Both the position numbers and the translations under genes were made by a program. This document shows, one piece after another, positions 8,573 to 41,567 of a stretch of 64,000 nucleotides of DNA. Each line of letters begins with the position of its first letter. The first letter of the stretch is position 1. Under the pieces are notes generated by a model. The model saw only the letters and a list, made by a program, of their open reading frames with translations. It made no database searches and was not told the DNA's origin. Source of the stretch: a virus; the IMG/VR virus record IMGVR_UViG_3300022562_001969, positions 1 to 64,000 of that record; one strand, 5' to 3'.

Positions 8573-8670
8573 TTTGGGGAATAAAAAAAGCCCTGGCTAA
8601 AACCAGGGCTTATCCAGACCTAAAGGTTTAAAAACCGGTCAGGTTTGTTAGCTCGCTACGCCGCCGCGTA

Positions 8671-9048
8671 TTACTCGTATTTCGGCAACATCTCAAGCGG
8701 ATCACGGCCGGTTATCCGGCCAAGAGCCGTTTCCCACTCTTCACTACAAAGGGTGTTGTCCATGGCCTCAACGGCCTGGACCAGGGCGCCATCCAGGTCC
8801 AGGAGAGCAATAATGTCTACCGCTCCGCTCGCGTCTCGTTTGGGGTTGGCGGCGAAATCGGTCAAGGCCGTAATGGCCTCGGCTAAACGCCCCAGACCGG
8901 GCAAGTCCACCCCGGGGGCTGCTTCTGTCTCCGGCGCAGCTTCGGGCGACAGGAGCGCCGCCGCCAGCAGGCCAGTGGCCGCCAAAAAACGACGACGGCT
9001 TATTTTGTTGATTAAGTTGGAGAATGTTAAAATAGTTTCAGTCTTCAT
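8671..9048 (-). CDS. small acidic protein with twin-arginine-like N-terminus (paralog of 37336-37728)
   Basis: SRRRFLAATGLLAA; GGGAGG RBS; strong similarity to the 37.3 kb gene. Confidence 0.75.
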   Translation of the reverse strand: MKTETILTFSNLINKISRRRFLAATGLLAAALLSPEAAPETEAAPGVDLPGLGRLAEAITALTDFAANPKRDASGAVDIIALLDLDGALVQAVEAMDNTLCSEEWETALGRITGRDPLEMLPKYE

Positions 9049-9159
9049 CAGTACCTCCCGTACTGTTGTGGATTAGAGCCGGTTTGATGGTTTCAACATC
9101 AGGCCGGCTCGTTCGTTTAAAGTTGACCGCATTATATACCCGAAGTCAGGACAGGTCAA
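9049..9159 (-). promoter_or_regulatory. repeated promoter/leader cassette, copy 1
   Basis: TTGACC-17-TATAAT, downstream GGTCAA inverted repeat, GC hairpin, RBS. Confidence 0.75.
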
Positions 9160-9284
9160 ATTCGCGTCAGATTTTTTTACAACGCTTGCGCCGGCGCACA
9201 TTGCCCTCCCCCAAACTTATGCTAAAATAAACATAACCCAAAACAAAAAGGCGCCCCACCTTAGTAATAGCTGATTCTGCAACT

Positions 9285-10365: not shown

Positions 10366-10428
10366 TAGCCTCGCTGATTGATCTACTGATCCGAAGTCAG
10401 CTGCTCTTATCCATTGAGCTACGAGGGC
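10366..10428 (-). tRNA. tRNA-Arg(UCG)-like RNA lacking the T-arm (pseudo-tRNA)
   Basis: GCCCTCG-TA-GCTCAATGGATAAGAGC-A-GCTGA-CTTCGGA-TCAGT then no TTCGA loop; short 3' acceptor strand CGAGG. Confidence 0.7.
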
Positions 10429-10530: not shown

Positions 10531-11538
10531 CTACTGATTCTCACTAGTAAGCGCCCGCTGCGCCTCGTCTAATCGTTGGCCCAGCCCGCCGGCCTGATAG
10601 GCCGCCACCTGTTCCTGATTGCGAAGTTGCAAATACACTTCCGTCATTTTTATGGACCGGTGGCCTAACTGATCTTTAACTTTATGAATCGGAATATTTT
10701 GGTCCATCGCCGCCAAAGCGGATGAATGGCGAAGCGCATGGAATTTGCGATGCGGCAGTCCACAATCGCGACAATGCCGCCGCAACATCTGGTTCAGCGC
10801 ATCGCGGCCCAATGGCTTGCCGATCCCCACCCGCCCCCCATAAGAGACAAACAGTTCGGGCGAGCCGGATCGGGGCCGGATCTGCAACCAGGCCAAAAGC
10901 GCGGCGGCTACCTCATCATCAAAGCCGACGAAACGGTCCCGTTTAGATTTTGAGGTTTCTCGCCGGATGAGGGCCTGGCGACCGGGGATATCGACATCGG
11001 TCAGCTTCAAGCAAACAATCTCATTCGCCCTGGCGCCGGTCACATAGGCAAAATAGATGATGGCGTAATCGCGTTTCACCCGTTCATCCTTCTTAAAAAG
11101 GCTTTTAGCCCGGTTAGCCAAATGACGCAGCAATAGGGCAATTTCCTGATCAGTAAAGGCCGTCGGCGACAGGTCCGGCATCCGGGGGAACATCCCGGCC
11201 AGTTTCATCCGCCGCACCGGGTTCTCATCAACGGATAACAGGCCAACCCCTTCGCAATAGTTGAGAAAGGAGCGCAGATGCCGCCAGTAGTTGTGAACCG
11301 TGGCCTCGCTGTTGGACAGACTGACCGTTTCCAGCCAGTCCATCACCAGGTCAACCGAGGGTGGCCACGGCTCCGCCTCGGCGTACTGGGCGAATAGACG
11401 CAGGACGGAATTGTAGGCGCGGCGGGTGCTGGCCGCTTTGAATCGTTTGGCCCGGTTAAATTGGTCAATGTAGCTTAATAGGTCTGTTTCTGTTTCTTGA
11501 ATCATACCAAACCAATCGACGAGAGGGGTGATTACCAT
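10531..11538 (-). CDS. tyrosine recombinase/integrase 1 (XerC/D-like)
   Basis: TGARANE, SKSK, FHALRH, LGHRSIKMTEVY catalytic set. Confidence 0.92.
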   Translation of the reverse strand: MVITPLVDWFGMIQETETDLLSYIDQFNRAKRFKAASTRRAYNSVLRLFAQYAEAEPWPPSVDLVMDWLETVSLSNSEATVHNYWRHLRSFLNYCEGVGLLSVDENPVRRMKLAGMFPRMPDLSPTAFTDQEIALLLRHLANRAKSLFKKDERVKRDYAIIYFAYVTGARANEIVCLKLTDVDIPGRQALIRRETSKSKRDRFVGFDDEVAAALLAWLQIRPRSGSPELFVSYGGRVGIGKPLGRDALNQMLRRHCRDCGLPHRKFHALRHSSALAAMDQNIPIHKVKDQLGHRSIKMTEVYLQLRNQEQVAAYQAGGLGQRLDEAQRALTSENQ

Positions 11539-23856: not shown

Positions 23857-23893
23857 GTTTCAATCTCTCATTCGAGATAATCGGCCTTTGAAC
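23857..23893 (-). CRISPR. isolated perfect copy of the 37-bp array-1 repeat
   Basis: Identical to the repeats at 25478-26098; adjacent partial GTTTCAATC duplication at 23847. Confidence 0.9.
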
Positions 23894-25477: not shown

Positions 25478-26098
25478 GTTTCAATCTCTCATTCGAGATA
25501 ATCGGCCTTTGAACCTGACGCAAAAAGCGGCGCAAAAAATGGCGCAGATTGAGTTTCAATCTCTCATTCGAGATAATCGGCCTTTGAACAGCATCTAACC
25601 ACATCTAGCAATAGGCAAAAAAGAGGTTTCAATCTCTCATTCGAGATAATCGGCCTTTGAACATAAAAATAGTATACCATAAATTTGCCGAGTGTGCAGT
25701 TTCAATCTCTCATTCGAGATAATCGGCCTTTGAACTGATGTTAAGATTGTGGGGACGGTGGCCAGCTTGTTGTTTCAATCTCTCATTCGAGATAATCGGC
25801 CTTTGAACCAGATAATGGCCAAGGTTGCCAAGTATTACGGTGTGTTTCAATCTCTCATTCGAGATAATCGGCCTTTGAACAGGACAAATGAGCGGAATTG
25901 TAGAGGTTGTAAACGGGTTTCAATCTCTCATTCGAGATAATCGGCCTTTGAACAGTGACGATCCACTAGCAGGCGCAACTTTTTAAGGAGTTTCAATCTC
26001 TCATTCGAGATAATCGGCCTTTGAACGCGGGCGCAATTGGATGAGGCCATCAATGAGGCGGGTTTCAATCTCTCATTCGAGATAATCGGCCTTTGAAC
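25478..26098 (-). CRISPR. CRISPR array 1: 9 identical 37-bp repeats, 8 spacers of 35-38 bp (I-D/III-like)
   Basis: Minus-strand repeat GTTCAAAGGCCGATTATCTCGAATGAGAGATTGAAAC ends in the ATTGAAAC handle. Confidence 0.97.
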
Positions 26099-27205: not shown

Positions 27206-27234
27206 GTTTTCCCCACAGGCGTGGGGGTGAACCG
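27206..27234 (+). CRISPR. solitary type I-E-like repeat abutting an RBS
   Basis: GTTTTCCCCACAGGCGTGGGGGTGAACCG followed directly by GGAGGAGCT-ATG. Confidence 0.85.
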
Positions 27235-27243
27235 GGAGGAGCT

Positions 27244-31549: not shown

Positions 31550-33199
31550 TTATATCTCCAACCGCCCTTGTGTTGGCCCTGCTCTTTCTTCTCTTTGGGC
31601 TTGTTTGAAGGTTCCATAGGCGGGCGGCATTTGTACACTTGCCCCCCCTAACAACGCCTCAATGGTAAGTATCTGAATTTTAGGGTATTTTTGGCCCCAG
31701 GCTACAGCCTCATAAAAACCGGCTGACACCGCCTCCTGGATCATCGGCTGCGTTGGTTCTTCCAGGGTGATAAAAACGCCGATAGCCGCCTTTTCCCGTT
31801 CAACCGTCCCAACCAGATCACGAATATCCCGGCTTGACACCTTGCCGCTCTTGACTTGCGCTAAAACCCGCTTAGGTTTGCCTTTTGCCGTATCAATAAA
31901 GGTGATAACCCCATCGATCCCTTTATCCGCTCCTTTTTTGCCCTTTTTACTGCCCTGGGTCGCTTTGCCCGGTCTGGCCCTAACTAACGACAAGGCCCAC
32001 CATTCAAACTGAAAGCGGTCTTGTTCTGCCAGAAAACGAGCAGAGCCTATTGTTTCAGGCTCGCCCTTGACTTCAAACGTTGTGTCCGGAAAGGCTTCTT
32101 GTAGACGATATTTTTGCAAGGCAATAGATAAATGGGTGATGTCAATACCTATCCACTTTCGGCCTAGTTTTTCAGCGGCTACTATCGCAGTACCACAACC
32201 GCAAAATGGATCAAGGACTACATCACCAGGGTTGCTACTGGCTGAAATGATACGTTCTAGTAAAGGTAAAGGTTTTTGTGTAGGATAACCCAGACGTTCA
32301 GCATCAGAACTTTGCAAAGGATTTATATCAGCCCAAATGTTTGTAATAATTGTTCCTTTTTGTTCGTTCAAAAAACGTTTAAGCGCAGGACGTTTACTAA
32401 AATCATAGGAACCATCTTTGTGACGTGGATAATAAATGCGCCCTTCATCGTGTAACTTTTGCATGGTTTCAGGTTTATAACGCCAACCTTTAGCAGGATA
32501 CGGAAAGCCTAGCCATTCGTACATCATATTGGGTCTAGGATTTGGACTTGTCATATTATCCAAACGATATAAACCGCGTCCATTATTATCATCAAATCGG
32601 TAATTTTTTTGGATATATTCCAAATCATATGGTCCATATTGAACAATAAACAGGTTTTTTTTGGAACGTTTATAAAAAAGAATTATGTCAGCAATATCAG
32701 CAAATTTCGTCTTTGCGTCACTATGGGCTGACTGTCGTTTCCAAATAATTTCATTGCCAAAGTTCTCAGCCCCAAAAATAGTATCAAGGATGACCTTCAA
32801 ATAATGGCTTGCTGTTGGGTCACAATGCAGATATAAGCTACCAGTAGGGTTCAATACCCGATGAAGTTCAACCAATCGACTAGCCATCATAACCAAATAA
32901 GCCATCATTTGGTTAGCGCCAATAAAATCACGCATGGCCCCAATCATCTTACTTATATGATCTGGTGATTCTGTTATCAATTCGTGATAGGTTTCCTCAG
33001 CGGCCGCGTTCCAGTGCCAAGTATCATCAAAAGCCGTTATCTGCGCCTGGCTATCTTGCCCACTTTCATCTTTGAATAAGACATTATAGCTGCGCTTTGA
33101 GTTAAAGGGGGGGTCAAGATAGACTAAATCAATACTTTCATCTGCTATGTAATCACGTAGAATTTGAAGGTTATCGCCATAATAAAGGGTATTTTTCAT
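31550..33199 (-). CDS. N6-adenine/N4-cytosine DNA methyltransferase fused to an Mrr-like endonuclease domain
   Basis: DPPF, YPTQKP, DPFCGCGT; C-terminal DKGIDG...QVKSG. Confidence 0.9.
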   Translation of the reverse strand: MKNTLYYGDNLQILRDYIADESIDLVYLDPPFNSKRSYNVLFKDESGQDSQAQITAFDDTWHWNAAAEETYHELITESPDHISKMIGAMRDFIGANQMMAYLVMMASRLVELHRVLNPTGSLYLHCDPTASHYLKVILDTIFGAENFGNEIIWKRQSAHSDAKTKFADIADIILFYKRSKKNLFIVQYGPYDLEYIQKNYRFDDNNGRGLYRLDNMTSPNPRPNMMYEWLGFPYPAKGWRYKPETMQKLHDEGRIYYPRHKDGSYDFSKRPALKRFLNEQKGTIITNIWADINPLQSSDAERLGYPTQKPLPLLERIISASSNPGDVVLDPFCGCGTAIVAAEKLGRKWIGIDITHLSIALQKYRLQEAFPDTTFEVKGEPETIGSARFLAEQDRFQFEWWALSLVRARPGKATQGSKKGKKGADKGIDGVITFIDTAKGKPKRVLAQVKSGKVSSRDIRDLVGTVEREKAAIGVFITLEEPTQPMIQEAVSAGFYEAVAWGQKYPKIQILTIEALLGGASVQMPPAYGTFKQAQREERAGPTQGRLEI

Positions 33200-33575
33200 T
33201 GGTTGACCACCTGACCAGGCCAGGCTATAACAAATGGCAAGTGAACGGTTCACCATCATGCCCGTGGAGAATACCCTGATTTTATCCGAGTTTGGGATGA
33301 CAGGCAAAAAAGACGGTCGTCCATCGTCCATCGCCCATCGTCGGTTACTTGTTTTCAGGCCAAAAGGGTATATAATTGATTTAGCGACATTTTGGCTTGA
33401 TAGTCTGATCAAGATATAATAGTAAAAGAAGCTCCAACCTCTGACAGGCTATCTGTCCAAAGTGTCGCAACTTGAGAGGTCTGGGGCTTCTTTTTGGTGC
33501 TTCAGGATTTTCCGTGGGAACCACTATATCGCCATACAAGAAAAGTAAGCCAACTTTCAAAGATAGGTTCGCAAG

Positions 33576-35627
33576 ATGACTGAAAGCCGCCAACCTGGTA
33601 GGAATTTTAGGGATGAATTACTTAAGATTTTGTCAGGGATGACCGCTTTGGATGACCCTGACAACCGATATCGGCTATTGGACAAGTTGCCACTAGAGGC
33701 AGTAGCAACCATACGACGCAATTCTGCTAAGGGGACCGACCTATACAATATCGTTCAGGCTGCCGAAGGATGGGGACAATTGACCTCTGGAGAGTGGGCC
33801 TTGGTCGTTATCGCCCAAAACGCCCTATCTCTAGTTAAAGGAACCCACCCCGGTCGTCAGCTAGAGGCTCTTTTAGCTGAAAGGGTTATTCATCAGGCCA
33901 AGCCAGGCCGGCAGATCCCCCTTGATCTGCCAGCGCGAGAGGAGAATTTTATAGACCGTAAGGACGAACTGGTATCTCTACTCACCGAATTACAACCAGG
34001 ACGAGTAGTCACTTTGACTGGGCCGGGGGGCATGGGCAAGACTGCCCTGGCCGCGGAAGCCGTTGGCCAACTGGTGGTTGATCATAAGCCCCCTGAGCGT
34101 TTCCCGGATGGCATCTTCTTTCATAGCTTTTACAACCAACCCCAAGCCGGTTTAGCCCTGGAAAGTCTGGCCCTGGCCTTTGGCGAGGAAGCCAGGCCAA
34201 CGGCCCAGGTAGCGGCACAACGGGCGTTGAGCGGCCGGCAGGCCTTATTGGTGTTGGATGGCGCTGAAGATGCGGATGACTTGGCGGCCGTGTTAGCGGT
34301 GCGCGGGGGGTGTGGGGTTTTAATAACCAGCCGTAATCGGGGCGATGCGCCGGCCGTGTTGCAAGACCTGGCGCCCCTCAAACAGCAAGACGCCCTGGAC
34401 TTATTACAACGCTGGGCTGAAGCGCAGCTTGATGACCAGGCGGCGGCCATTGCCATCTGCGAACTGGTGGGGAGGCTGCCGCTGGCGGTGCGTCTGGTAG
34501 GGCGGTATCTGCGTGAGACCGGGGAGACGGCCAGCGAGTATCTAGCCTGGTTACAAGAAACCCCGTTAGAGGCCCTGAACCAGGGGCGGCGACGCGAAGA
34601 AAGTATACCTGTCTTACTTGAGCGCAGTCTAAAGCAGGTCAGTGAGGCGGCGCGGCAAGTGTTGGCGGTGGCCGGCCGGCTGGCGCTGGCCCCGCTGCAA
34701 CAAGAGGTGATGGGGGCCGCTTTGGCAGCCGAAGCGCGTGAGGTGAGACAGTGGTTAGGAGAATTGGTGCGCTATGGCTTGCTGAGCCGGGACAAAGGGC
34801 GTTATGCCATCAGTCACGCCCTCATTCACACCTACGCCAGTGAGCGGCTCAATGTGGCGGAGGAGATGGTCGAGCGGTTGGTGGCTTTCTATGTCGCTTT
34901 GGCTGAACACTTTAGCCAGCAAGGATTGGCAGGCTACCAGGCGCTTGATGGGGAGCGGCCTCACCTGCTGCGCTTGATTGCAGGCTGCGCGAAAGGAGAT
35001 GATTGGCTGGGGGTTCGCAAGCTGGTCTGGGCCATTGATGGTTATTTGTCAATTCAGGGTCACGCCAGCGAACGACAAACTGCCCTAGCGACAGGGCTAA
35101 CAGCCGCCCAACAACTGGGCGACCGCCAAGATGAAGGGGCATTTTTAGGCAGCCTGGGGACCGCCTACTACGACCAGGGGGAGCTGGACAAAGCCATCGC
35201 CCATTCTCAGCAAGCCCTGGTCATCCACCGCGAGATTGGCTACCGCCAGGGGGAGGCTGCTGTTTTAGGCTACCTGGGAACCGCCTACAGCATCCAGGGG
35301 GAGCTGGCCAAAGGCATCGACCATTATCAGCAAGCCCTGGTCATCCACCGCGAGATTGGCTACCGCCAGGGGGAGGCTTATAATTTAGGCATCCTGGGTC
35401 TCGCCTACCGCGCCCAGGGGGAGAGGGCCAAAGCCAGAGAATACTTAGCCCAGGCGCTCACTATTTTTGAGGCGATCAAATCGCCCCAGGCAGACGCAAT
35501 TCGTGAACAGTTGACTATGCTGACTATGTTAGGCCGCCTCCATATACTCTTAGCAATGTGTCAGGCCATCTACGAGAAAGGATTGATGAGGCAGCTTTTG
35601 CCGCTTTTCAAAAGGCTTATTCACTAA
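33576..35627 (+). CDS. NLR-like STAND protein: effector-associated-like N-domain, NB-ARC, TPR repeats
   Basis: GPGGMGKT, LLVLDGAE, LITSR, GRLPLAV; 40-aa TPR repeats. Confidence 0.88.
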   Translation: MTESRQPGRNFRDELLKILSGMTALDDPDNRYRLLDKLPLEAVATIRRNSAKGTDLYNIVQAAEGWGQLTSGEWALVVIAQNALSLVKGTHPGRQLEALLAERVIHQAKPGRQIPLDLPAREENFIDRKDELVSLLTELQPGRVVTLTGPGGMGKTALAAEAVGQLVVDHKPPERFPDGIFFHSFYNQPQAGLALESLALAFGEEARPTAQVAAQRALSGRQALLVLDGAEDADDLAAVLAVRGGCGVLITSRNRGDAPAVLQDLAPLKQQDALDLLQRWAEAQLDDQAAAIAICELVGRLPLAVRLVGRYLRETGETASEYLAWLQETPLEALNQGRRREESIPVLLERSLKQVSEAARQVLAVAGRLALAPLQQEVMGAALAAEAREVRQWLGELVRYGLLSRDKGRYAISHALIHTYASERLNVAEEMVERLVAFYVALAEHFSQQGLAGYQALDGERPHLLRLIAGCAKGDDWLGVRKLVWAIDGYLSIQGHASERQTALATGLTAAQQLGDRQDEGAFLGSLGTAYYDQGELDKAIAHSQQALVIHREIGYRQGEAAVLGYLGTAYSIQGELAKGIDHYQQALVIHREIGYRQGEAYNLGILGLAYRAQGERAKAREYLAQALTIFEAIKSPQADAIREQLTMLTMLGRLHILLAMCQAIYEKGLMRQLLPLFKRLIH

Positions 35628-35929: not shown

Positions 35930-36128
35930 TTGGACGATGGACGACCGGCGGCGACTTAAGACTGCGGCCGCCCATCGTCCATCGTCCATCGTCGCCAAGG
36001 CGAAGCGACCACCGACGACACAACACCGCCGCCCATCGTCCATCGTCCATCGTCGCCAAGGCGAAGCGACCACCGACGACACAACACCGCCGCCCGCCGT
36101 CCATCGTCTATCGTCCATCGTCCGTCGT
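35930..36128. repeat. heptamer REP/STRR-like tract (GACGATG/CATCGTC)
   Basis: Also near 17.1, 26.1, 26.8, 29.8, 31.5, 33.3, 38.0-38.46 and 39.3 kb. Confidence 0.8.
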
Positions 36129-37049
36129 CAGCCCCCGGTACGCCCGGGCCCGGGCCTCATCCCGGCCGCGCAGATAGACCGAAGTCGTGGCGATGTCCGC
36201 ATGGCCCAATTGGTCGCGCACCTTGTCCAGGGAGACGCCGGCTTCGAGGGCCAGCAAAGCCGAGGTGTGGCGCAGGGCGTGAAAGTAAGCCCGGGGCAAG
36301 CCGGCCGCCCTGGCCCGGCGCTTGAACAGTTGGCTCACCCCGGAGGCGGTCAGGCCGGGCCCCGGGCGGCCCCAGCGCCAGGCCGGGAAGACATGAGCGG
36401 GCCGGTGGCCACCCTCGGCCAGATAACGTTGCCAGGCCCACAAATCCCCTTTGACCGCCAAATTAAAATAGACCACCCGCCCCCGGCGCGTCTTGGCCGT
36501 CTCCGCCGCCACCTCGGCGGCCAGCTCGGCCAGGCGCAGTTGCTCCCAGCGCAGGGCGGCCACTTCCCCGGCCCGGCAGCCGGTGACCAGGGCAAAATGG
36601 ACCAGGGCCAGGTCGCGCAGCTCACGCCCCTCGCCGGCGGCGGCCGCCCGGCGCAACTGGGCCAGCAGGCGCTCCACTTCGGCCCGGCTGAGGGCCACCG
36701 GCGGCAGGTGGGGCCGGGGCGGCAAGAGGCGCAATTGGGCAATTTGCCGGGTCGGGTTGCGGTTGGCCTCAATGATCTCTAATTGTTCCAAAAAGTTGAA
36801 AAATGCGCGCAGGTGGGTATAATAGGTGCGCACCGTCACCTCTCCACCGGCGGTGGAGTCTATCCAGCCCATTACCTGACCGGCCGTGACCGGCCAGGCC
36901 GGGCCGATGTAGTCGGCGAAGCGGCTTAAGATATTGGTGTAGTTCTGTAGCGTCTTCGGCCGCCACGAACGTCTCTTGAGAGTGATAAAACCTTTAATGT
37001 GCCCTCCCAGAATGGTATCCGGGAGGGACACAGAAGGCGGCGTAGCCAT
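36108..37049 (-). CDS. tyrosine recombinase/integrase 2 (paralog of 10531-11538)
   Basis: TGCRAGE, AKT, FHALRH, LGHADIATTSVY. Confidence 0.92.
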   Translation of the reverse strand: MATPPSVSLPDTILGGHIKGFITLKRRSWRPKTLQNYTNILSRFADYIGPAWPVTAGQVMGWIDSTAGGEVTVRTYYTHLRAFFNFLEQLEIIEANRNPTRQIAQLRLLPPRPHLPPVALSRAEVERLLAQLRRAAAAGEGRELRDLALVHFALVTGCRAGEVAALRWEQLRLAELAAEVAAETAKTRRGRVVYFNLAVKGDLWAWQRYLAEGGHRPAHVFPAWRWGRPGPGLTASGVSQLFKRRARAAGLPRAYFHALRHTSALLALEAGVSLDKVRDQLGHADIATTSVYLRGRDEARARAYRGLTTDDGR

Positions 37050-37071
37050 ACGATTGGAGGCTCCGGAGAGA

Positions 37072-37152
37072 CTTCGGAGTCAAAACCTTTAGGTTTTTCT
37101 TCGGAGTCGAAACCTTTAGGTTTTTCTTCGGAGTCAAAACCTTTAGGTTTTT
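37072..37152. repeat. 3 x 27-bp tandem repeat upstream of recombinase 2
   Basis: CTTCGGAGTC(A/G)AAACCTTTAGGTTTTT x3. Confidence 0.92.
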
Positions 37153-37222
37153 CAAGCCTGAAGGCTTGGACTCCTCTATTCCGGAGTCGAAACCGGTTCA
37201 CCCCCACGTCTGTGGGGAATAC
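37153..37222 (-). CRISPR. solitary type I-E-like repeat (37194-37222) plus 25-nt spacer-like segment and hairpin
   Basis: GTATTCCCCACAGACGTGGGGGTGAACCG, then GTTTCGACTCCGGAATAGAGGAGTC, then CAAGCC-TTCA-GGCTTG. Confidence 0.8.
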
Positions 37223-37335
37223 GGGCTCCGGTTAATGCCCAAACCTAAAGGCTTGGACTCCTTTGAGCCTTTGAGCCTTTGAGCCTAAAATAAAAACCTG
37301 ACCGGTTTTTGAAACCAGTCAGGTTTGTTACCTCG

Positions 37336-37728
37336 CTACGCCGCCGTGCGTTGCTGGTATTCCACCAGCATCTCGACCGGATCGCGGCCGGCCACGCGGC
37401 CCAGGGCCTCTTCCCAGTCGCCGCTGTGGAGGATGGCGTTGAGGGATTCGACGGCCTGCACCAGGGCCACCTCAAGGTCCAGCAGGGCGACGATGTCCAC
37501 CGCCCCACTCGCCTCTCTGGTAGGGTTGGCGGCGAAGTCAGTCAGGGCCGCAATGGCCTCGACCAGTCTCGCCAGCCCGGGCAACTCAGCGCCGGGGGCT
37601 ACTTCTGCTTCCGGCGCCAGCTCGCCCAACGCCAGGCTGGCCGCCAGCAGACCGGTTGCCGCCAGAAATCCGCGACGGTCTATTTGGTTGTTGGTTTGGG
37701 GGTGTGCTAAAATACGTTCAGTTCTCAT
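37336..37728 (-). CDS. small acidic protein with twin-arginine-like N-terminus (paralog of 8671-9048)
   Basis: DRRGFLAATGLLAA; GAGGAG RBS. Confidence 0.75.
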   Translation of the reverse strand: MRTERILAHPQTNNQIDRRGFLAATGLLAASLALGELAPEAEVAPGAELPGLARLVEAIAALTDFAANPTREASGAVDIVALLDLEVALVQAVESLNAILHSGDWEEALGRVAGRDPVEMLVEYQQRTAA

Positions 37729-37913
37729 GGTAAGCTCCTCTTACTGTGTGAATTAGGGCCGGTTTGATGTTTCAGCATCAGGCCGGCTCGTTCGTTTAAA
37801 GTTGACCACATTATATGCCCAAACTCAGCATTAGTCAAATCCGGCTCAGGATTTATTTTTTTACGACGCTTGCGGCTGGCCGCCGGGCGACGTATACTAA
37901 TAGTAGCTCTCAT
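37725..37913 (-). CDS. small basic peptide (62 aa)
   Basis: Strong RBS CACAGTAAGGAG, but the ORF overlaps the downstream promoter. Confidence 0.35.
   Translation of the reverse strand: MRATISIRRPAASRKRRKKINPEPDLTNAEFGHIMWSTLNERAGLMLKHQTGPNSHSKRSLP
37729..37838 (-). promoter_or_regulatory. repeated promoter/leader cassette, copy 3
   Basis: TTGACT-17-TATAAT, GGTCAA, hairpin nearly identical to copy 1. Confidence 0.75.
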
Positions 37914-37982
37914 GGTATCTCCTTACTGTGAGAGTATGGTTTCGCCTCGTTTTTTAGCCCGCGAGGCGAAGCCTGTTTTTTT

Positions 37983-38277
37983 GGACGATAGACGATGGAC
38001 GATGGACGGCGGGCGGCGGTTTGACGGGCGGCGGTCGTCCATCGTCGGTCGTCGCTTCGCCTTGACGACGATAGACGATGGACGGCGGTTTGACGGTCGT
38101 CGGTCGTCCATCGTCGGTCGTCACTTTGCCTTGGCGACGCTAGACGATAGACGATAGACCGCGGTTTGACGGTCGTCTATCGTCCATCGTCGGTCGTCAC
38201 TTCGCCTTGGCGACGCTAGACGATAGACGATGGATGGCTGTATGGCATCGTCGGTCGTCGGTCGTCGGTCGTCGTTC
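37983..38277. repeat. heptamer REP/STRR-like inverted tract
   Basis: GACGATAGACGATGGACG and its complement repeated. Confidence 0.8.
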
Positions 38278-38377
38278 CGCCAGGCGTCAACTTGTTTGGA
38301 TAGCATACCTCTACGTAGGTCTCCCGTTAGGTTTCCGTTTTGCCGGTTTGGTAAAACGGCCTTGCTGGGGGGGGATT

Positions 38378-38407
38378 ATCGTATCATAGGTGGGGGGGAT
38401 CTGTCAA
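38378..38407 (-). promoter_or_regulatory. sigma70 promoter
   Basis: TTGACA-18-TACGAT with TGn extended -10. Confidence 0.6.
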
Positions 38408-38495
38408 GCGGTTTTAAGCTTCGCGACGATGGACGATAGACGACCGGCGACTAACGACGACCGTCTCTTTTGTTTATTTGTTTATTTGTTTATTT

Positions 38496-38854
38496 ATTTC
38501 AATCCACGCCCCCCGTGAGGGGAGCGACTTCGGTGAAGGAAAAAATTCCTTAACCGATGGGGTTTCAATCCACGCCCCCCGCGAGGGGAGCGACATAAAA
38601 ACAGGCTTCGCTTTGCGGGCTATTTCAATCCACGCCCCCCGCGAGGGGAGCGACTTGGCCGGTCAAGGTGATCCGCCAACCGGTTGCGGTTTCAATCCAC
38701 GCCCCCCGCGAGGGGAGCGACTTGCTGAAACGTTCGTGGTAGACTGTTTCAGTTTGTTTCAATCCACGCCCCCCACAAGGGGAGCGACGCGACCAGCTCA
38801 TCACTATCCAATTCAAAAAGCGTTTCAATCCACGCCCCCCACAAGGGGAGCGAC
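38496..38854 (-). CRISPR. CRISPR array 2: type I-C-like, 6 repeats of 33 bp, spacers of 33, 27, 34, 34, 33 bp
   Basis: Minus-strand repeat GTCGCTCCCCTCGCGGGGGGCGTGGATTGAAAC with variants. Confidence 0.95.
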
Positions 38855-39020
38855 GGCAACATCTGGGTATACCCAGATTATACATAATATATATTGTGGC
38901 GCCTTTTTTGTCAATCGGACAACCGGCTCAATATTGCTCGCTAAATGTTCTTTTTTGGGGTGGTTAAGGTACAAAATAGGCGCGAACCCTCCGGGCAATG
39001 GCTGGGCGCTTGGGGTTCGC
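38855..39020 (-). promoter_or_regulatory. type I-C leader
   Basis: AT-rich segment with GCGAACC...GGTTCGC inverted motif typical of I-C leaders. Confidence 0.65.
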
Positions 39021-39041
39021 AAACCCAGATTAAAGGATGAT

Positions 39042-39124
39042 CGGTTCACCCCCACGCCTGTGGGGAATACTCGTCCATCGTCCATCGTCGCGAAGCGGTT
39101 CACCCCCCCGCCTGTGGGGAATAC
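39042..39124 (-). CRISPR. type I-E-like mini-array: two 29-bp repeats, one 25-bp spacer
   Basis: Repeats at 39042-39070 and 39096-39124; spacer 39071-39095. Confidence 0.9.
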
Positions 39125-39311
39125 GCTCCAAAACGTTATAAAGTTTTAATGTTACAACCGTTCGCTAGCTTAGAACACGGATATGGGGAGGGTAACGGAT
39201 TTTCGACCTGGCTATAAGTAATCCGTTACCTTCTGCCAATCCGCTGTTCTCAAGCTAACCGTGCAATAGCAGCAACGCCCAAACGGTCGTCCATCGTCCA
39301 TCGTCAGCCGT

Positions 39312-39617
39312 CTATCGTCCACCGTCCATCGTCACCCCCGGGCAGCCTTCGACAAGCTCAGGCTGCTGCGGTCGTCCATCGTCGGTCGTCCATCGTCGGT
39401 CGTCCATCGTCGCCCCCCGGGCGGCCAGCGCCGTATTAAGCGCCTTGAGTTCCGCCTCAAGATCACCTATTTTTTTTTGCAAAGCGGTTTCGTTGGCGGC
39501 CATCTTGGCCAACCGCTTCTCCAGGGTAATATTCAGGAGAAGCGCCTGGCTTAATAGTGAGCCCCAGCGTTGGCCGAGGGTATCGACCAGCTCCAAAATT
39601 TGCTGTTCGGTCATCAT
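39312..39617 (-). CDS. small coiled-coil protein (3' end runs into a REP tract)
   Basis: Coupled to the upstream ORF. Confidence 0.5.
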   Translation of the reverse strand: MMTEQQILELVDTLGQRWGSLLSQALLLNITLEKRLAKMAANETALQKKIGDLEAELKALNTALAARGATMDDRRWTTDDGRPQQPELVEGCPGVTMDGGR

Positions 39618-39880
39618 GGTCTCTCGAACAGGAATTGGTCAATGTTCGTACCGTGGCCGCCCGCTAACCAGATATTCAGTAGGTCATTGATTGATGAATA
39701 TGCGTTGTCATACTGCGTTTTATTAACCGCTCGCCCGTCAAAATCCCCGCTGACCAATGCAATATAATTATTATGAGTATGCCTGCTATACAATCCTTCT
39801 AAGTCGGTCAAAATCTTTCTAAATTCTTGTAATTTCTGACCGGTTTCTTCGATGTGACTGTTAAACGTATTTATTGCCAT
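39614..39880 (-). CDS. hypothetical phage protein
   Basis: ORF after the tail fibre gene. Confidence 0.6.
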   Translation of the reverse strand: MAINTFNSHIEETGQKLQEFRKILTDLEGLYSRHTHNNYIALVSGDFDGRAVNKTQYDNAYSSINDLLNIWLAGGHGTNIDQFLFERP

Positions 39881-39884
39881 ATTA

Positions 39885-41567
39885 TTATCCTAAAATTCCC
39901 GCTGTCTGAAAATCGTTAATGAGTGTTCCCAGCACGTCGGCTATTTCGGCCAATGTCGTACTATCCGCGTCGAATGACCTGTCCGTGGTGACATTGGTCG
40001 GCGTGTAGGTTTGCAAGCCGCCGTCTTTGGCAATGATAACCGTATTGCCGGAGCTAAAAACTACTTTTTGCTGAGTGGTTCCCCCCCCATCATCCTCAGC
40101 GTATAGACGAGTGGTGTTTGCCCCGCCTGCGCCCGGCGCAGTCATCTCTGTAAATTCAATATCTCCCGCCCCCAGGTCGATTTTGGCTGATGGTGAGGCT
40201 ACGCCAACGCCAATATTAGCGGCGGCGGTAATGACCAACCTGTTACCACTGCCCCCTACCGTAAACCGCATCTCATCAGCCGAGTGGTTGTAGACAAACT
40301 GACCAACATTGGCGCTACTGGCGTCGCCAAAATCTATAATGGAGTTTGCCGCCGCGCCCCCTATCAGGGTTAGGCGGACATTGTCTGTAGTATTGACGTT
40401 GTTTTGGACAAAAATCCCGTTACCCGTTGGGATGGAGGGCAACGAGCCGGCTCCGCCAGTAACGTGCAATTTGTATTGCGGGCTGCTTTCACTGATGCCG
40501 ACATTGCCACCCGGCAACACCCGTAATCTTTCGACATTGCCGCCGCTATTATTGGGACTGGTTTTAATGAAAAATGACATCGGCACGGTATTGGCGGCCA
40601 CACTGCCCTCTATCTCGGCCCCAAACTGGGCGGCCAGATTATAATCGGTGCCGTCGTGGGCCTCAAAATTGAACAGCCCTACAGTGTCTCCAGCCTGAAC
40701 TGCCGCCCCCCCGGCTCTGGCTCGCAAAAATGCGGCCTGGCTGCCACGCCCGGCCGTATCCGATTGTCGCGACAACACGATAGCGCGGACGTTGGCCACG
40801 TCCGCATCCTGCACGGACAGTTGCGCCTGAGTGACCGTACCTTGAAACGTATATTGCGTATCGGCCGACCTGATACTAACAGCCTCATTAGTCACATCGA
40901 CATTAAACACCGGCGCGCCGCCATCAGCGTCCAATACCTGGAAAAAGTCCGTACTATCAGTCGTTGGTTGTAGCTTTATCTGGCCGGTAGAGGTAGGTTT
41001 AATGGTTAAGTCGTGGCTGGCGTCTACCGCCAGCGTGGCGTAGACCGAATTATCCGTATGGGTGAGCCGTAGTTGCGGGCCGGCGTTATTGAGGATGTCC
41101 ACCTGATTGCGAGGCGTGGCCACGCCAACGCCGAAAAAGCCGTCACTGCCCCGCAAAAACATATCGCCATTGAAATTGATGTCCACATCCCCTGAGCCGG
41201 GGCCAAGGGTAATCAAATCCTGGGTGGTCTCTGTCAATTTCAGCATCGACAGGCCGCCAGCGGTAAACTCTATCTCATCGTCAGCGAAACAAATTTTGGT
41301 GTCCGGGTCGCCAGTGTGAATGATGCAATCGGCCAGGGTCAGATTACCCACCCCACTCAGATCGCCGGTGATAATCAGGTTTCCGGCCAGGGTGACATCG
41401 CCGTTATTGTCAACGCTCACAGCCGGATCAACCGTCCCATCCGGCGAGACCATGACGCTATGAGGCGGCGCTTCCAGAGTTTTCAATTGGTTCAGATCGG
41501 TAATTAGCCGGATCATCCCCTGATTGCTTTGCTGGCCAATCACCTCGTTGAAATTTGGATCAGGCAT
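39885..41567 (-). CDS. tail fibre protein
   Basis: Repeated GNVGI...P..KLHV fibre motifs; Gly/Thr-rich. Confidence 0.8.
   Translation of the reverse strand: MPDPNFNEVIGQQSNQGMIRLITDLNQLKTLEAPPHSVMVSPDGTVDPAVSVDNNGDVTLAGNLIITGDLSGVGNLTLADCIIHTGDPDTKICFADDEIEFTAGGLSMLKLTETTQDLITLGPGSGDVDINFNGDMFLRGSDGFFGVGVATPRNQVDILNNAGPQLRLTHTDNSVYATLAVDASHDLTIKPTSTGQIKLQPTTDSTDFFQVLDADGGAPVFNVDVTNEAVSIRSADTQYTFQGTVTQAQLSVQDADVANVRAIVLSRQSDTAGRGSQAAFLRARAGGAAVQAGDTVGLFNFEAHDGTDYNLAAQFGAEIEGSVAANTVPMSFFIKTSPNNSGGNVERLRVLPGGNVGISESSPQYKLHVTGGAGSLPSIPTGNGIFVQNNVNTTDNVRLTLIGGAAANSIIDFGDASSANVGQFVYNHSADEMRFTVGGSGNRLVITAAANIGVGVASPSAKIDLGAGDIEFTEMTAPGAGGANTTRLYAEDDGGGTTQQKVVFSSGNTVIIAKDGGLQTYTPTNVTTDRSFDADSTTLAEIADVLGTLINDFQTAGILG

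Follow-up and report, generated by a model that had tools for sequence, protein, structure and literature searches.

Why would a phage without detected cas genes carry a two-repeat CRISPR array whose only spacer matches, next to a canonical PAM, a site in the phage's own genome that adjoins a predicted promoter? The array lies in the window that we analyzed, which covers the first 64 kb of one virus record of 86,114 bp, and the public run containing the phage is a marine sediment metagenome. The phage is temperate and siphovirus-like, with tail genes for a tape-measure protein, Dit-type and Gp37-like tail proteins, and a tail fiber, and it also encodes a large terminase, a ribonucleotide reductase, a sigma factor, two tyrosine integrases, and two ParB-HTH proteins. 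No Cas domain was detected in the 46 ORFs of the 86-kb genome that were scanned against Pfam, a set that covers the small ORFs only in part, and the mini-array lacks the adjacent cas1-cas2 genes and leader of a canonical adaptive array. In the same genome we observed three CRISPR repeat families plus three solitary type I-E repeats, with I-E repeats present at four separate loci. Elsewhere in the window, defense-like genes at 31550-35627 (a methylase-Mrr fusion and a STAND NTPase with EAD8 and TPR domains) adjoin the lysogeny module, and positions 10366-10428, beside integrase 1 (10531-11538), give a tRNA-like Rfam match (34 bits) at which ARAGORN finds no tRNA; this segment may be a tRNA-derived attachment site.

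The mini-array reads on the minus strand, which is the RNA sense, and consists of an upstream 29-nt repeat (39096-39124), a 25-nt spacer (39071-39095), and a downstream 29-nt repeat (39042-39070), which agrees with the earlier note's description of the locus as an I-E mini-array with a 25-nt spacer. The two repeats are identical at 28 of 29 positions; the downstream copy matches the consensus, and in the upstream copy a single T in the 3' half of the hairpin stem is changed to G. Both have the type I-E layout, a GC-rich hairpin followed by an 8-nt 3' tail ending in AACCG, and RNA folding returns the expected hairpin for the downstream repeat and a stem with one mismatch for the upstream one. 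No Rfam CRISPR-DR model, from a collection covering few repeat families, reached its gathering score in the window. Neither a consensus scan nor a reading of the sequence revealed a strong promoter directly upstream of the mini-array; sequence downstream of it folds no better as a terminator than shuffled sequence does (z = -1.0).

A pattern scan of species-representative genomes placed the closest I-E repeats in Chloroflexota. The complete Anaerolineae MAG OZ241372.1 carries a repeat identical to the mini-array repeat 39042-39070 at 28 of 29 positions, in an array of ∼75 repeats directly after a cse1...cas6e-cas1-cas2 operon (E = 1e-74 for Cse1 and 3e-55 for Cas6e), whose Cascade and Cas6e genes lie at 495-501 kb of the chromosome, and it is this identity to an array beside an I-E cas operon that identifies the mini-array repeat as a true type I-E repeat. 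Since OZ241372.1 has no spacer against the phage and contains neither the I-C repeat nor the heptamer repeat discussed below, we treat it as a stand-in and not as the host. In the phage, the heptamer repeat, (GACGATG)n, often forms hairpins and is found on the flanks of the arrays and of several promoters; of the 401 Anaerolineae genomes sampled, 38 contain it, three of them with ∼50 copies each. By this distribution, it is a host-type REP-like element common to the phage and the host lineage, and it gives a clue to the host. In two sediment runs (X1 and X2) we could also observe contigs that combine the mini-array's repeat with spacers of normal length, so an organism with a matching I-E array shares the habitat. 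We take a marine-sediment bacterium of the Anaerolineae (Chloroflexota) to be the probable host.

The spacer is composed of a CTTCGC junction (6 nt), two heptamers, and a further 5 nt, and it matches the plus strand at 38419-38443, where a solitary heptamer-REP arm starts. The earlier note had put this match at 24 of 25 positions with the mismatch at position 20, and our recomputation returned the same alignment, which leaves 19 contiguous PAM-proximal nucleotides without a mismatch. Directly 5' of the protospacer stands AAG (38416-38418, plus strand), the canonical type I-E PAM already pointed out in that note. The G of this AAG lines up with the repeat's terminal G, and the match thus continues by 1 base onto the repeat to give 26 nt at 96%. 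In Escherichia coli, this register, with the PAM G on the final base of the repeat, is what I-E spacer acquisition leaves behind. Read in these terms, the spacer carries the mark of type I-E acquisition by Cas1-Cas2, namely an AAG PAM with its G also serving as the repeat's final base.

A match built largely from a repeated element could be a by-product of that element, and the earlier note had recognized that its case would fall if PAM plus seed were frequent through REP copies. This is not what we found. AAGCTTCGCG occurs once in the 86-kb genome, in which the AAG trinucleotide has a frequency of 1.1%, in line with the note's observation that AAG plus seed stands beside the heptamers only here. 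Among the ∼26 heptamer-arm starts of the genome, the junction CTTCGC is present only in the spacer and the protospacer, and the other junctions vary. Within the phage, only two other sites match the spacer with 1 mismatch, 35975-35999 and 36036-36060 on the minus strand; both depart from it at position 4 of the seed and have a CGC flank. The site count that the note had called for is therefore one in the element and zero in 11 candidate-host genomes (5 with the heptamer REP and 6 with the closest I-E repeats), which were searched for PAM plus protospacer with up to 3 mismatches. The unique junction, the unique AAGCTTCGCG, and the poorer quality of the other matches together indicate a copy relationship and not a by-product of the repeat; the spacer was copied from a single, unique repeat-arm junction of the phage's own lineage. 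We also considered that the spacer and its target might be the two arms of one REP hairpin split by an insertion and rejected this, as the order of the arms is reversed relative to every intact hairpin.

At 25 nt the spacer is 7 nt below 32 nt, the lower of the canonical 32 to 33 nt, and host-type arrays with the mini-array's repeat have a period of 61 to 62 nt. Adding one 7-nt heptamer to 25 nt gives exactly 32 nt, which is canonical for repeats of this family. The simplest origin, and the most likely one given this arithmetic, is a normal 32-nt acquisition followed by the loss of one heptamer through slippage. The same two features, a canonical spacer minus one unit and a PAM and register that attest real acquisition, also fit a different account of the locus, in which an anti-phage spacer was taken from the corresponding site of a relative and served in superinfection exclusion, the self-match exists by descent, the loss of a heptamer disarmed a spacer that would have been suicidal, and the promoter plays no part. 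We consider this account somewhat unlikely, for reasons that involve the second array described below.

The site raises a second question, that of what it adjoins. A sigma-70-type promoter is predicted on the minus strand at 38378-38407 (TTGACA-18-TACGAT with an extended -10 TG; 10/12 in a consensus scan), with a start near 38371, ∼45 nt downstream of the PAM. The -35 box (38407-38402) had been named in the earlier note, which correctly placed the protospacer 11 bp from it, and the PAM is 8 bp from this box in what is a predicted promoter. Some of this proximity comes with the heptamer repeat itself, since a heptamer arm lies 18 to 41 nt upstream of the -35 box in at least 4 of the 31 promoter-like sites of the genome, which makes promoter adjacency partly a property of the repeat. 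By our own estimate, an arm-derived spacer would lie beside a promoter by chance in perhaps 15% of cases, against ∼0.2% for a random site.

Read along the minus strand, the region begins with the tail genes, followed by heptamer hairpins (39430-39280), the I-E mini-array, a predicted promoter (38914-38886), and a type I-C-like array (38854-38496). These are followed by the I-E protospacer and its PAM, the predicted promoter at 38407-38378, three heptamer hairpins, and a hairpin that contains the target of a 27-nt I-C spacer. Most distal are orf62, the predicted orf130 promoter, orf130, a terminator, a solitary I-E repeat, three 27-bp direct repeats, and integrase 2. The first ORFs downstream of the target promoter are thus orf62 and orf130 (37336-37913, minus strand), the latter with a TAT signal and a predicted promoter of its own at 37810-37838; as to function, PHROGs, Pfam, and a protein atlas returned only this TAT signal. 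A paralogue of orf130 at 8674-9048 is 66% identical and has the same promoter, 5'-UTR hairpin, and terminator (compare 8600-9200 with 37290-37920 of the window), and the orf130 cassette is a duplicated small-gene cassette. We had also entertained that 38300-38470 mimics a host promoter and dropped this idea because the region has no counterpart in the Anaerolineae MAG with the closest repeat.

The reading that we favor, tentatively and at somewhat below an even chance, is that the mini-array acts as a crRNA-like regulator by which host Cascade is stationed at a predicted promoter of the phage itself. From the anatomy, the unique site, its PAM, and its geometry, all of which are observed here, we infer transcription and processing of the mini-array, binding of Cascade, and repression, in the following manner. 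The mini-array would be transcribed leftward and cut by host Cas6e into a crRNA of ∼54 nt (8 + 25 + 21), in which the upstream repeat (39096-39124) would supply the 8-nt 5' handle and the downstream repeat (39042-39070) the 3' hairpin bound by Cas6e. Host Cascade loaded with this crRNA would bind 38419-38443 with its PAM side abutting the -35 box of the promoter 38378-38407, and would there block both initiation at this promoter and read-through from the upstream I-C array. The unit of REP, orf62, and orf130, possibly also with the integrase, would be silenced as long as host Cascade is active.

The geometry at the predicted promoter is that of published cases. In promoters validated by experiment as Cascade repressed, the target borders the -35 box and transcription starts 37 to 46 bp downstream of the target, and crRNA-like regulators of defense genes repress 5- to 60-fold (bioRxiv 10.1101/2024.12.27.630466). 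The target of an E. coli I-E mini-array is likewise AAG flanked and immediately upstream of Pcas (PMC10120712). The 25-nt guide between its two repeats also agrees with the 21 to 25 nt published for short guides between repeat-like units: viral I-E units have 24- and 21-nt guides (10.1101/2024.10.29.618823), and the RNA that regulates Gabija implies a 25-nt guide (bioRxiv 10.1101/2024.12.27.630466). Known regulatory guides, by comparison, pair over ∼16 to 20 bp, often discontinuously, and those of the CreR, CreA, and crlRNA class are located in or beside a cas operon, whereas the mini-array pairs at 24 of 25 positions and belongs to a phage with no detected cas genes. The Cascade action on the promoter that the earlier note had implied is upheld only in part; the published geometry and the short guide speak for it, and the predicted nature of the promoter, the 24/25 pairing, unlike that of known regulators, and the frequent position of REP arms beside promoters keep it a proposal.

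With a 24/25 match, any attenuation of Cas3 must come from the length of the guide alone. An E. coli I-E spacer from which 6 nt had been removed protected against neither phage nor transformation and caused plasmid loss only slowly (PMC5159557), and a 24-bp guide in an I-B system gave repression without interference (PMC10989794). We propose that the phage tolerates its self-match because the shortened guide would weaken Cas3-dependent cutting. E. coli spacers of more than 20 nt retain some interference, and together with the near-complete pairing this makes some self-damage by the 25-nt guide possible.

The type I-C-like array (38496-38854, minus strand; 6 repeats and 5 spacers) lies between the mini-array and its target and has a predicted promoter at 38886-38914 (minus strand; consensus, 11/12); its repeat was not found in the 11 candidate-host genomes. 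Its only short spacer, of 27 nt (38595-38621, minus strand), matches 37956-37982 on the plus strand at 24 of 27 positions with a TTT flank. This target, a hairpin arm followed by a T-run as read by eye, is 43 nt upstream of the orf62 start codon and ∼640 bp from its spacer, and it shares the leftward transcription unit of the I-E target, 460 bp downstream of it. The 27-nt spacer would act likewise at this second position of the same unit. For both short spacers of the phage, the 25-nt I-E and the 27-nt I-C one, the target is ∼630 to 640 bp distant, the seed is intact, and the PAM is usable. The one self-matching spacer of full length, the I-C spacer 38529-38561, presents the opposite picture of a broken PAM and seed: it matches a ParB-HTH-like gene 44 kb away (genome positions 82892-82924) at 30 of 33 positions, with all mismatches at positions 2 to 4 and a flank that is not TTC, a pattern that looks like escape from self-targeting. 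The contrast drawn from the short self-matching spacers belongs to a tiny sample in which such matches were being looked for.

This array bears directly on the account of a disarmed anti-phage spacer. Mismatches confined to positions 2 to 4 and a non-TTC flank are the expected pattern of a spacer aimed at relatives when the copy in its carrier has diverged or escaped, and since the I-C spacer against the ParB-like gene shows that the phage does carry spacers against its own kind, that account stays strong. The I-E self site differs from the escaped I-C site in keeping a perfect PAM and a 19-nt PAM-proximal match. Moreover, the targets of both short spacers lie within ∼640 bp, for which we estimate a probability of ∼2% each if the protospacer were at random in 86 kb, and searches of phage records returned no external protospacer for any spacer of the phage.

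A third array, at 25478-26098 of the window, has nine 37-nt repeats ending in ...ATTGAAAC (minus strand) and eight spacers, none of which matches the phage itself; an identical isolated copy of its repeat is found at 23857, 1.6 kb away.

Besides the mini-array, the phage has solitary I-E repeats at 27206, 33246, and 37194. The last of these (37194-37222, minus strand) lies 145 nt upstream of integrase 2. The 12-nt stretch after it has matches at three sites, all flanked by AAG, within 37075-37140 and ahead of the integrase gene; as these sites are copies of one tandem motif of 27-bp repeats, they count as a single event. The 27-bp repeats could be integrase arm sites, with the solitary repeat at 37194 as the attachment core. 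Within 27206-27243 of the window, the sense-oriented repeat at 27206 is separated from the ATG of a 250-aa ORF by 9 nt that include GGAGGAG, and cleavage or binding by Cas6e at this position would touch the ribosome-binding site of that ORF.

Dispersed I-E repeats are also a feature of OZ241372.1, in which ∼60 copies lie outside the main array, solitary or in mini-arrays of 2 to 4, across the whole chromosome. Many of them end 2 to 12 nt before an ATG. Degenerate copies stand directly before cas6e and cas2, their 3' half reading GGAGGTGAACCG, which is Shine-Dalgarno-like, and a repeat-spacer-repeat unit with a 32-nt spacer sits between cas3 and cse1 in a layout like that of crRNA-like regulators. 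From these positions, the I-E repeat in the lineage of OZ241372.1 may be used as a 5'-UTR or regulatory element. The rule of a seed with an AAG-flanked local match found no such pattern at ∼40 solitary repeats of this genome. In an unrelated MAG contig, the end of a type I-C array is followed ∼50 nt later by a solitary I-E repeat, with an ORF ∼55 nt downstream.

The three solitary copies in the phage fit the layout of Racr (PMC10651486), and they call for a further explanation to be weighed, in which the mini-array is an RNA decoy or anti-CRISPR that soaks up Cas6e and Cascade subunits together with the solitary repeats or, alternatively, a Cracr aimed at a host cas or toxin promoter, with an incidental self-match. 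Phage-borne solitary repeat units are an established kind of RNA anti-CRISPR (PMC10651486), the guides of viral I-E Cracr units span 21 to 24 nt between repeat-like sequences (10.1101/2024.10.29.618823), and the phage has its four I-E repeat loci and no detected cas genes; a PAM-flanked self-match would also be tolerable if host I-E were inhibited. A Cracr guide is expected to have 9 or more PAM-proximal bp in common with a host CreR/CreA guide or with a cas promoter, and we found no AAG-plus-seed match in the I-E cas locus of OZ241372.1. The empty search of the 11 candidate-host genomes and the missing counterpart of the target region in OZ241372.1 weigh against it in the same way, and a pure decoy has no need of a PAM-flanked, junction-specific match. 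We judge the explanation unlikely on the whole; its host-directed version may still hold in a host other than these candidate genomes.

Can the locus be trusted as assembled? Repeats are frequent in the phage, public contigs cover 37808-39041 poorly because they break at repeats, and there is no sign of conservation. All of this would suit a nonfunctional relic, a decayed array fragment among repeats, or a mis-join by the assembler of I-E and heptamer repeat copies. Nevertheless, run X1 contains 94% of the 31-mers sampled from 36000-40000, the repeat-CTTCGC junction is specific and mirrored only by the AAG-flanked site, and both repeats of the mini-array are nearly intact, and we hold a relic or artifact to be quite improbable. 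The only detectable relative is in run X2, where it is represented by short contigs ∼92 to 97% identical. One contig of this relative joins an I-E repeat to a different heptamer stretch, from which the spacer may not be conserved or the contig may come from another locus.

Searches for further relatives returned little. Megablast found no close relatives in phage records, viral contigs matched the phage only distantly and on a tail-fiber protein domain, and pattern searches of viral collections for the repeat and for short-spacer mini-arrays gave nothing, with the heptamer matches in viral contigs belonging to unrelated phages. JGI metagenomes held no relatives with orf130, and the short-spacer pattern there returned chance matches and one unrelated array; nothing was found for orf130 in the 401 Anaerolineae genomes either. 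The arrays of the genomes that we examined contain no spacers against the phage.

Taken together, the regulatory reading is favored by the published geometry, the short guide, the contrast between short and full-length spacers, and the 12-nt seed at 37194. Our confidence in it stays tentative because the promoter is predicted from consensus only, the pairing is near complete, heptamer arms stand beside promoters, the mini-array has no strong promoter, and the run X2 contig shows a different junction. A broader version, in which a cas-less phage uses the host I-E and I-C Cascades as transcription factors for its own lysogeny-side module by means of shortened, PAM-correct self-guides, so that expression of the module would report the presence or inhibition of host CRISPR, is rather doubtful. 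If it were true, phage genes could switch on when the anti-CRISPR of a superinfecting phage disables Cascade.

How does the mini-array compare with systems already described? Virus-borne mini-CRISPR arrays are reportedly involved in conflicts between viruses, as Medvedeva and Faure are said to have described in 2019. As far as such arrays are represented in PMC10120712 (refs 48 and 67 therein), the phage array is like them in having a cas-less virus as carrier, one spacer between two repeats, and an origin from its own kind; those spacers are, in that account, full length and directed against relatives, whereas the phage spacer is 7 nt short and its carrier keeps PAM and seed. Racr elements (PMC10651486) also place host-type repeats in a phage genome, as do the three solitary I-E repeats here, yet they have no functional guide, unlike the mini-array with its two repeats and a guide that has a PAM-flanked match. 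In laboratory constructs of short-spacer Cascade (PMC5159557 for I-E and PMC10989794 for I-B), a guide lacking approximately one Cas7 step (6 nt) assembles, binds, and cuts poorly; the mini-array would be a natural case of the same.

Viral Cracr units (bioRxiv 10.1101/2024.10.29.618823, Liu et al.) are phage borne, use host Cas proteins, as we infer for the mini-array, have a short guide between repeats, and can be arrayed. Their guides are copies of host CreR/CreA guides and shut down cas or toxin promoters of the host, whereas the only target found here is in the phage, and on this comparison the mini-array resembles viral Cracr in carrier and guide length with no target found in the candidate hosts. 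CreR, CreA, and the crlRNAs (10.1101/2024.12.27.630466; PMC10120712) have one or two repeat-like units, a short guide, and a nearby PAM-flanked target beside a -35 box, which is a predicted one in the phage, and with them Cascade represses without cutting, as is proposed for the mini-array. The mini-array differs from them in being in a phage, in pairing at 24 of 25 positions and not partially, in having near-canonical and not degenerate repeats, and in the control, proposed here, of the phage's own genes. On balance, it appears to work most like a crRNA-like regulator, yet it departs from that class in two defining features, location in a cas locus and partial pairing.

Should the regulatory reading fail, the locus would still be a clear case of three repeat families and a disarmed self-matching spacer in a phage. 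Regulatory crRNA-like RNAs are known from two settings, host cas loci and phages that aim at host promoters. If the regulatory reading is true, a phage guide against the phage's own promoter would be a third setting, in which the host immune complex would serve as repressor and as sensor of CRISPR status. The locus would also provide a natural conversion of a cutting guide into one that only binds, through shortening by one Cas7 step, apparently by a 7-nt repeat slippage.
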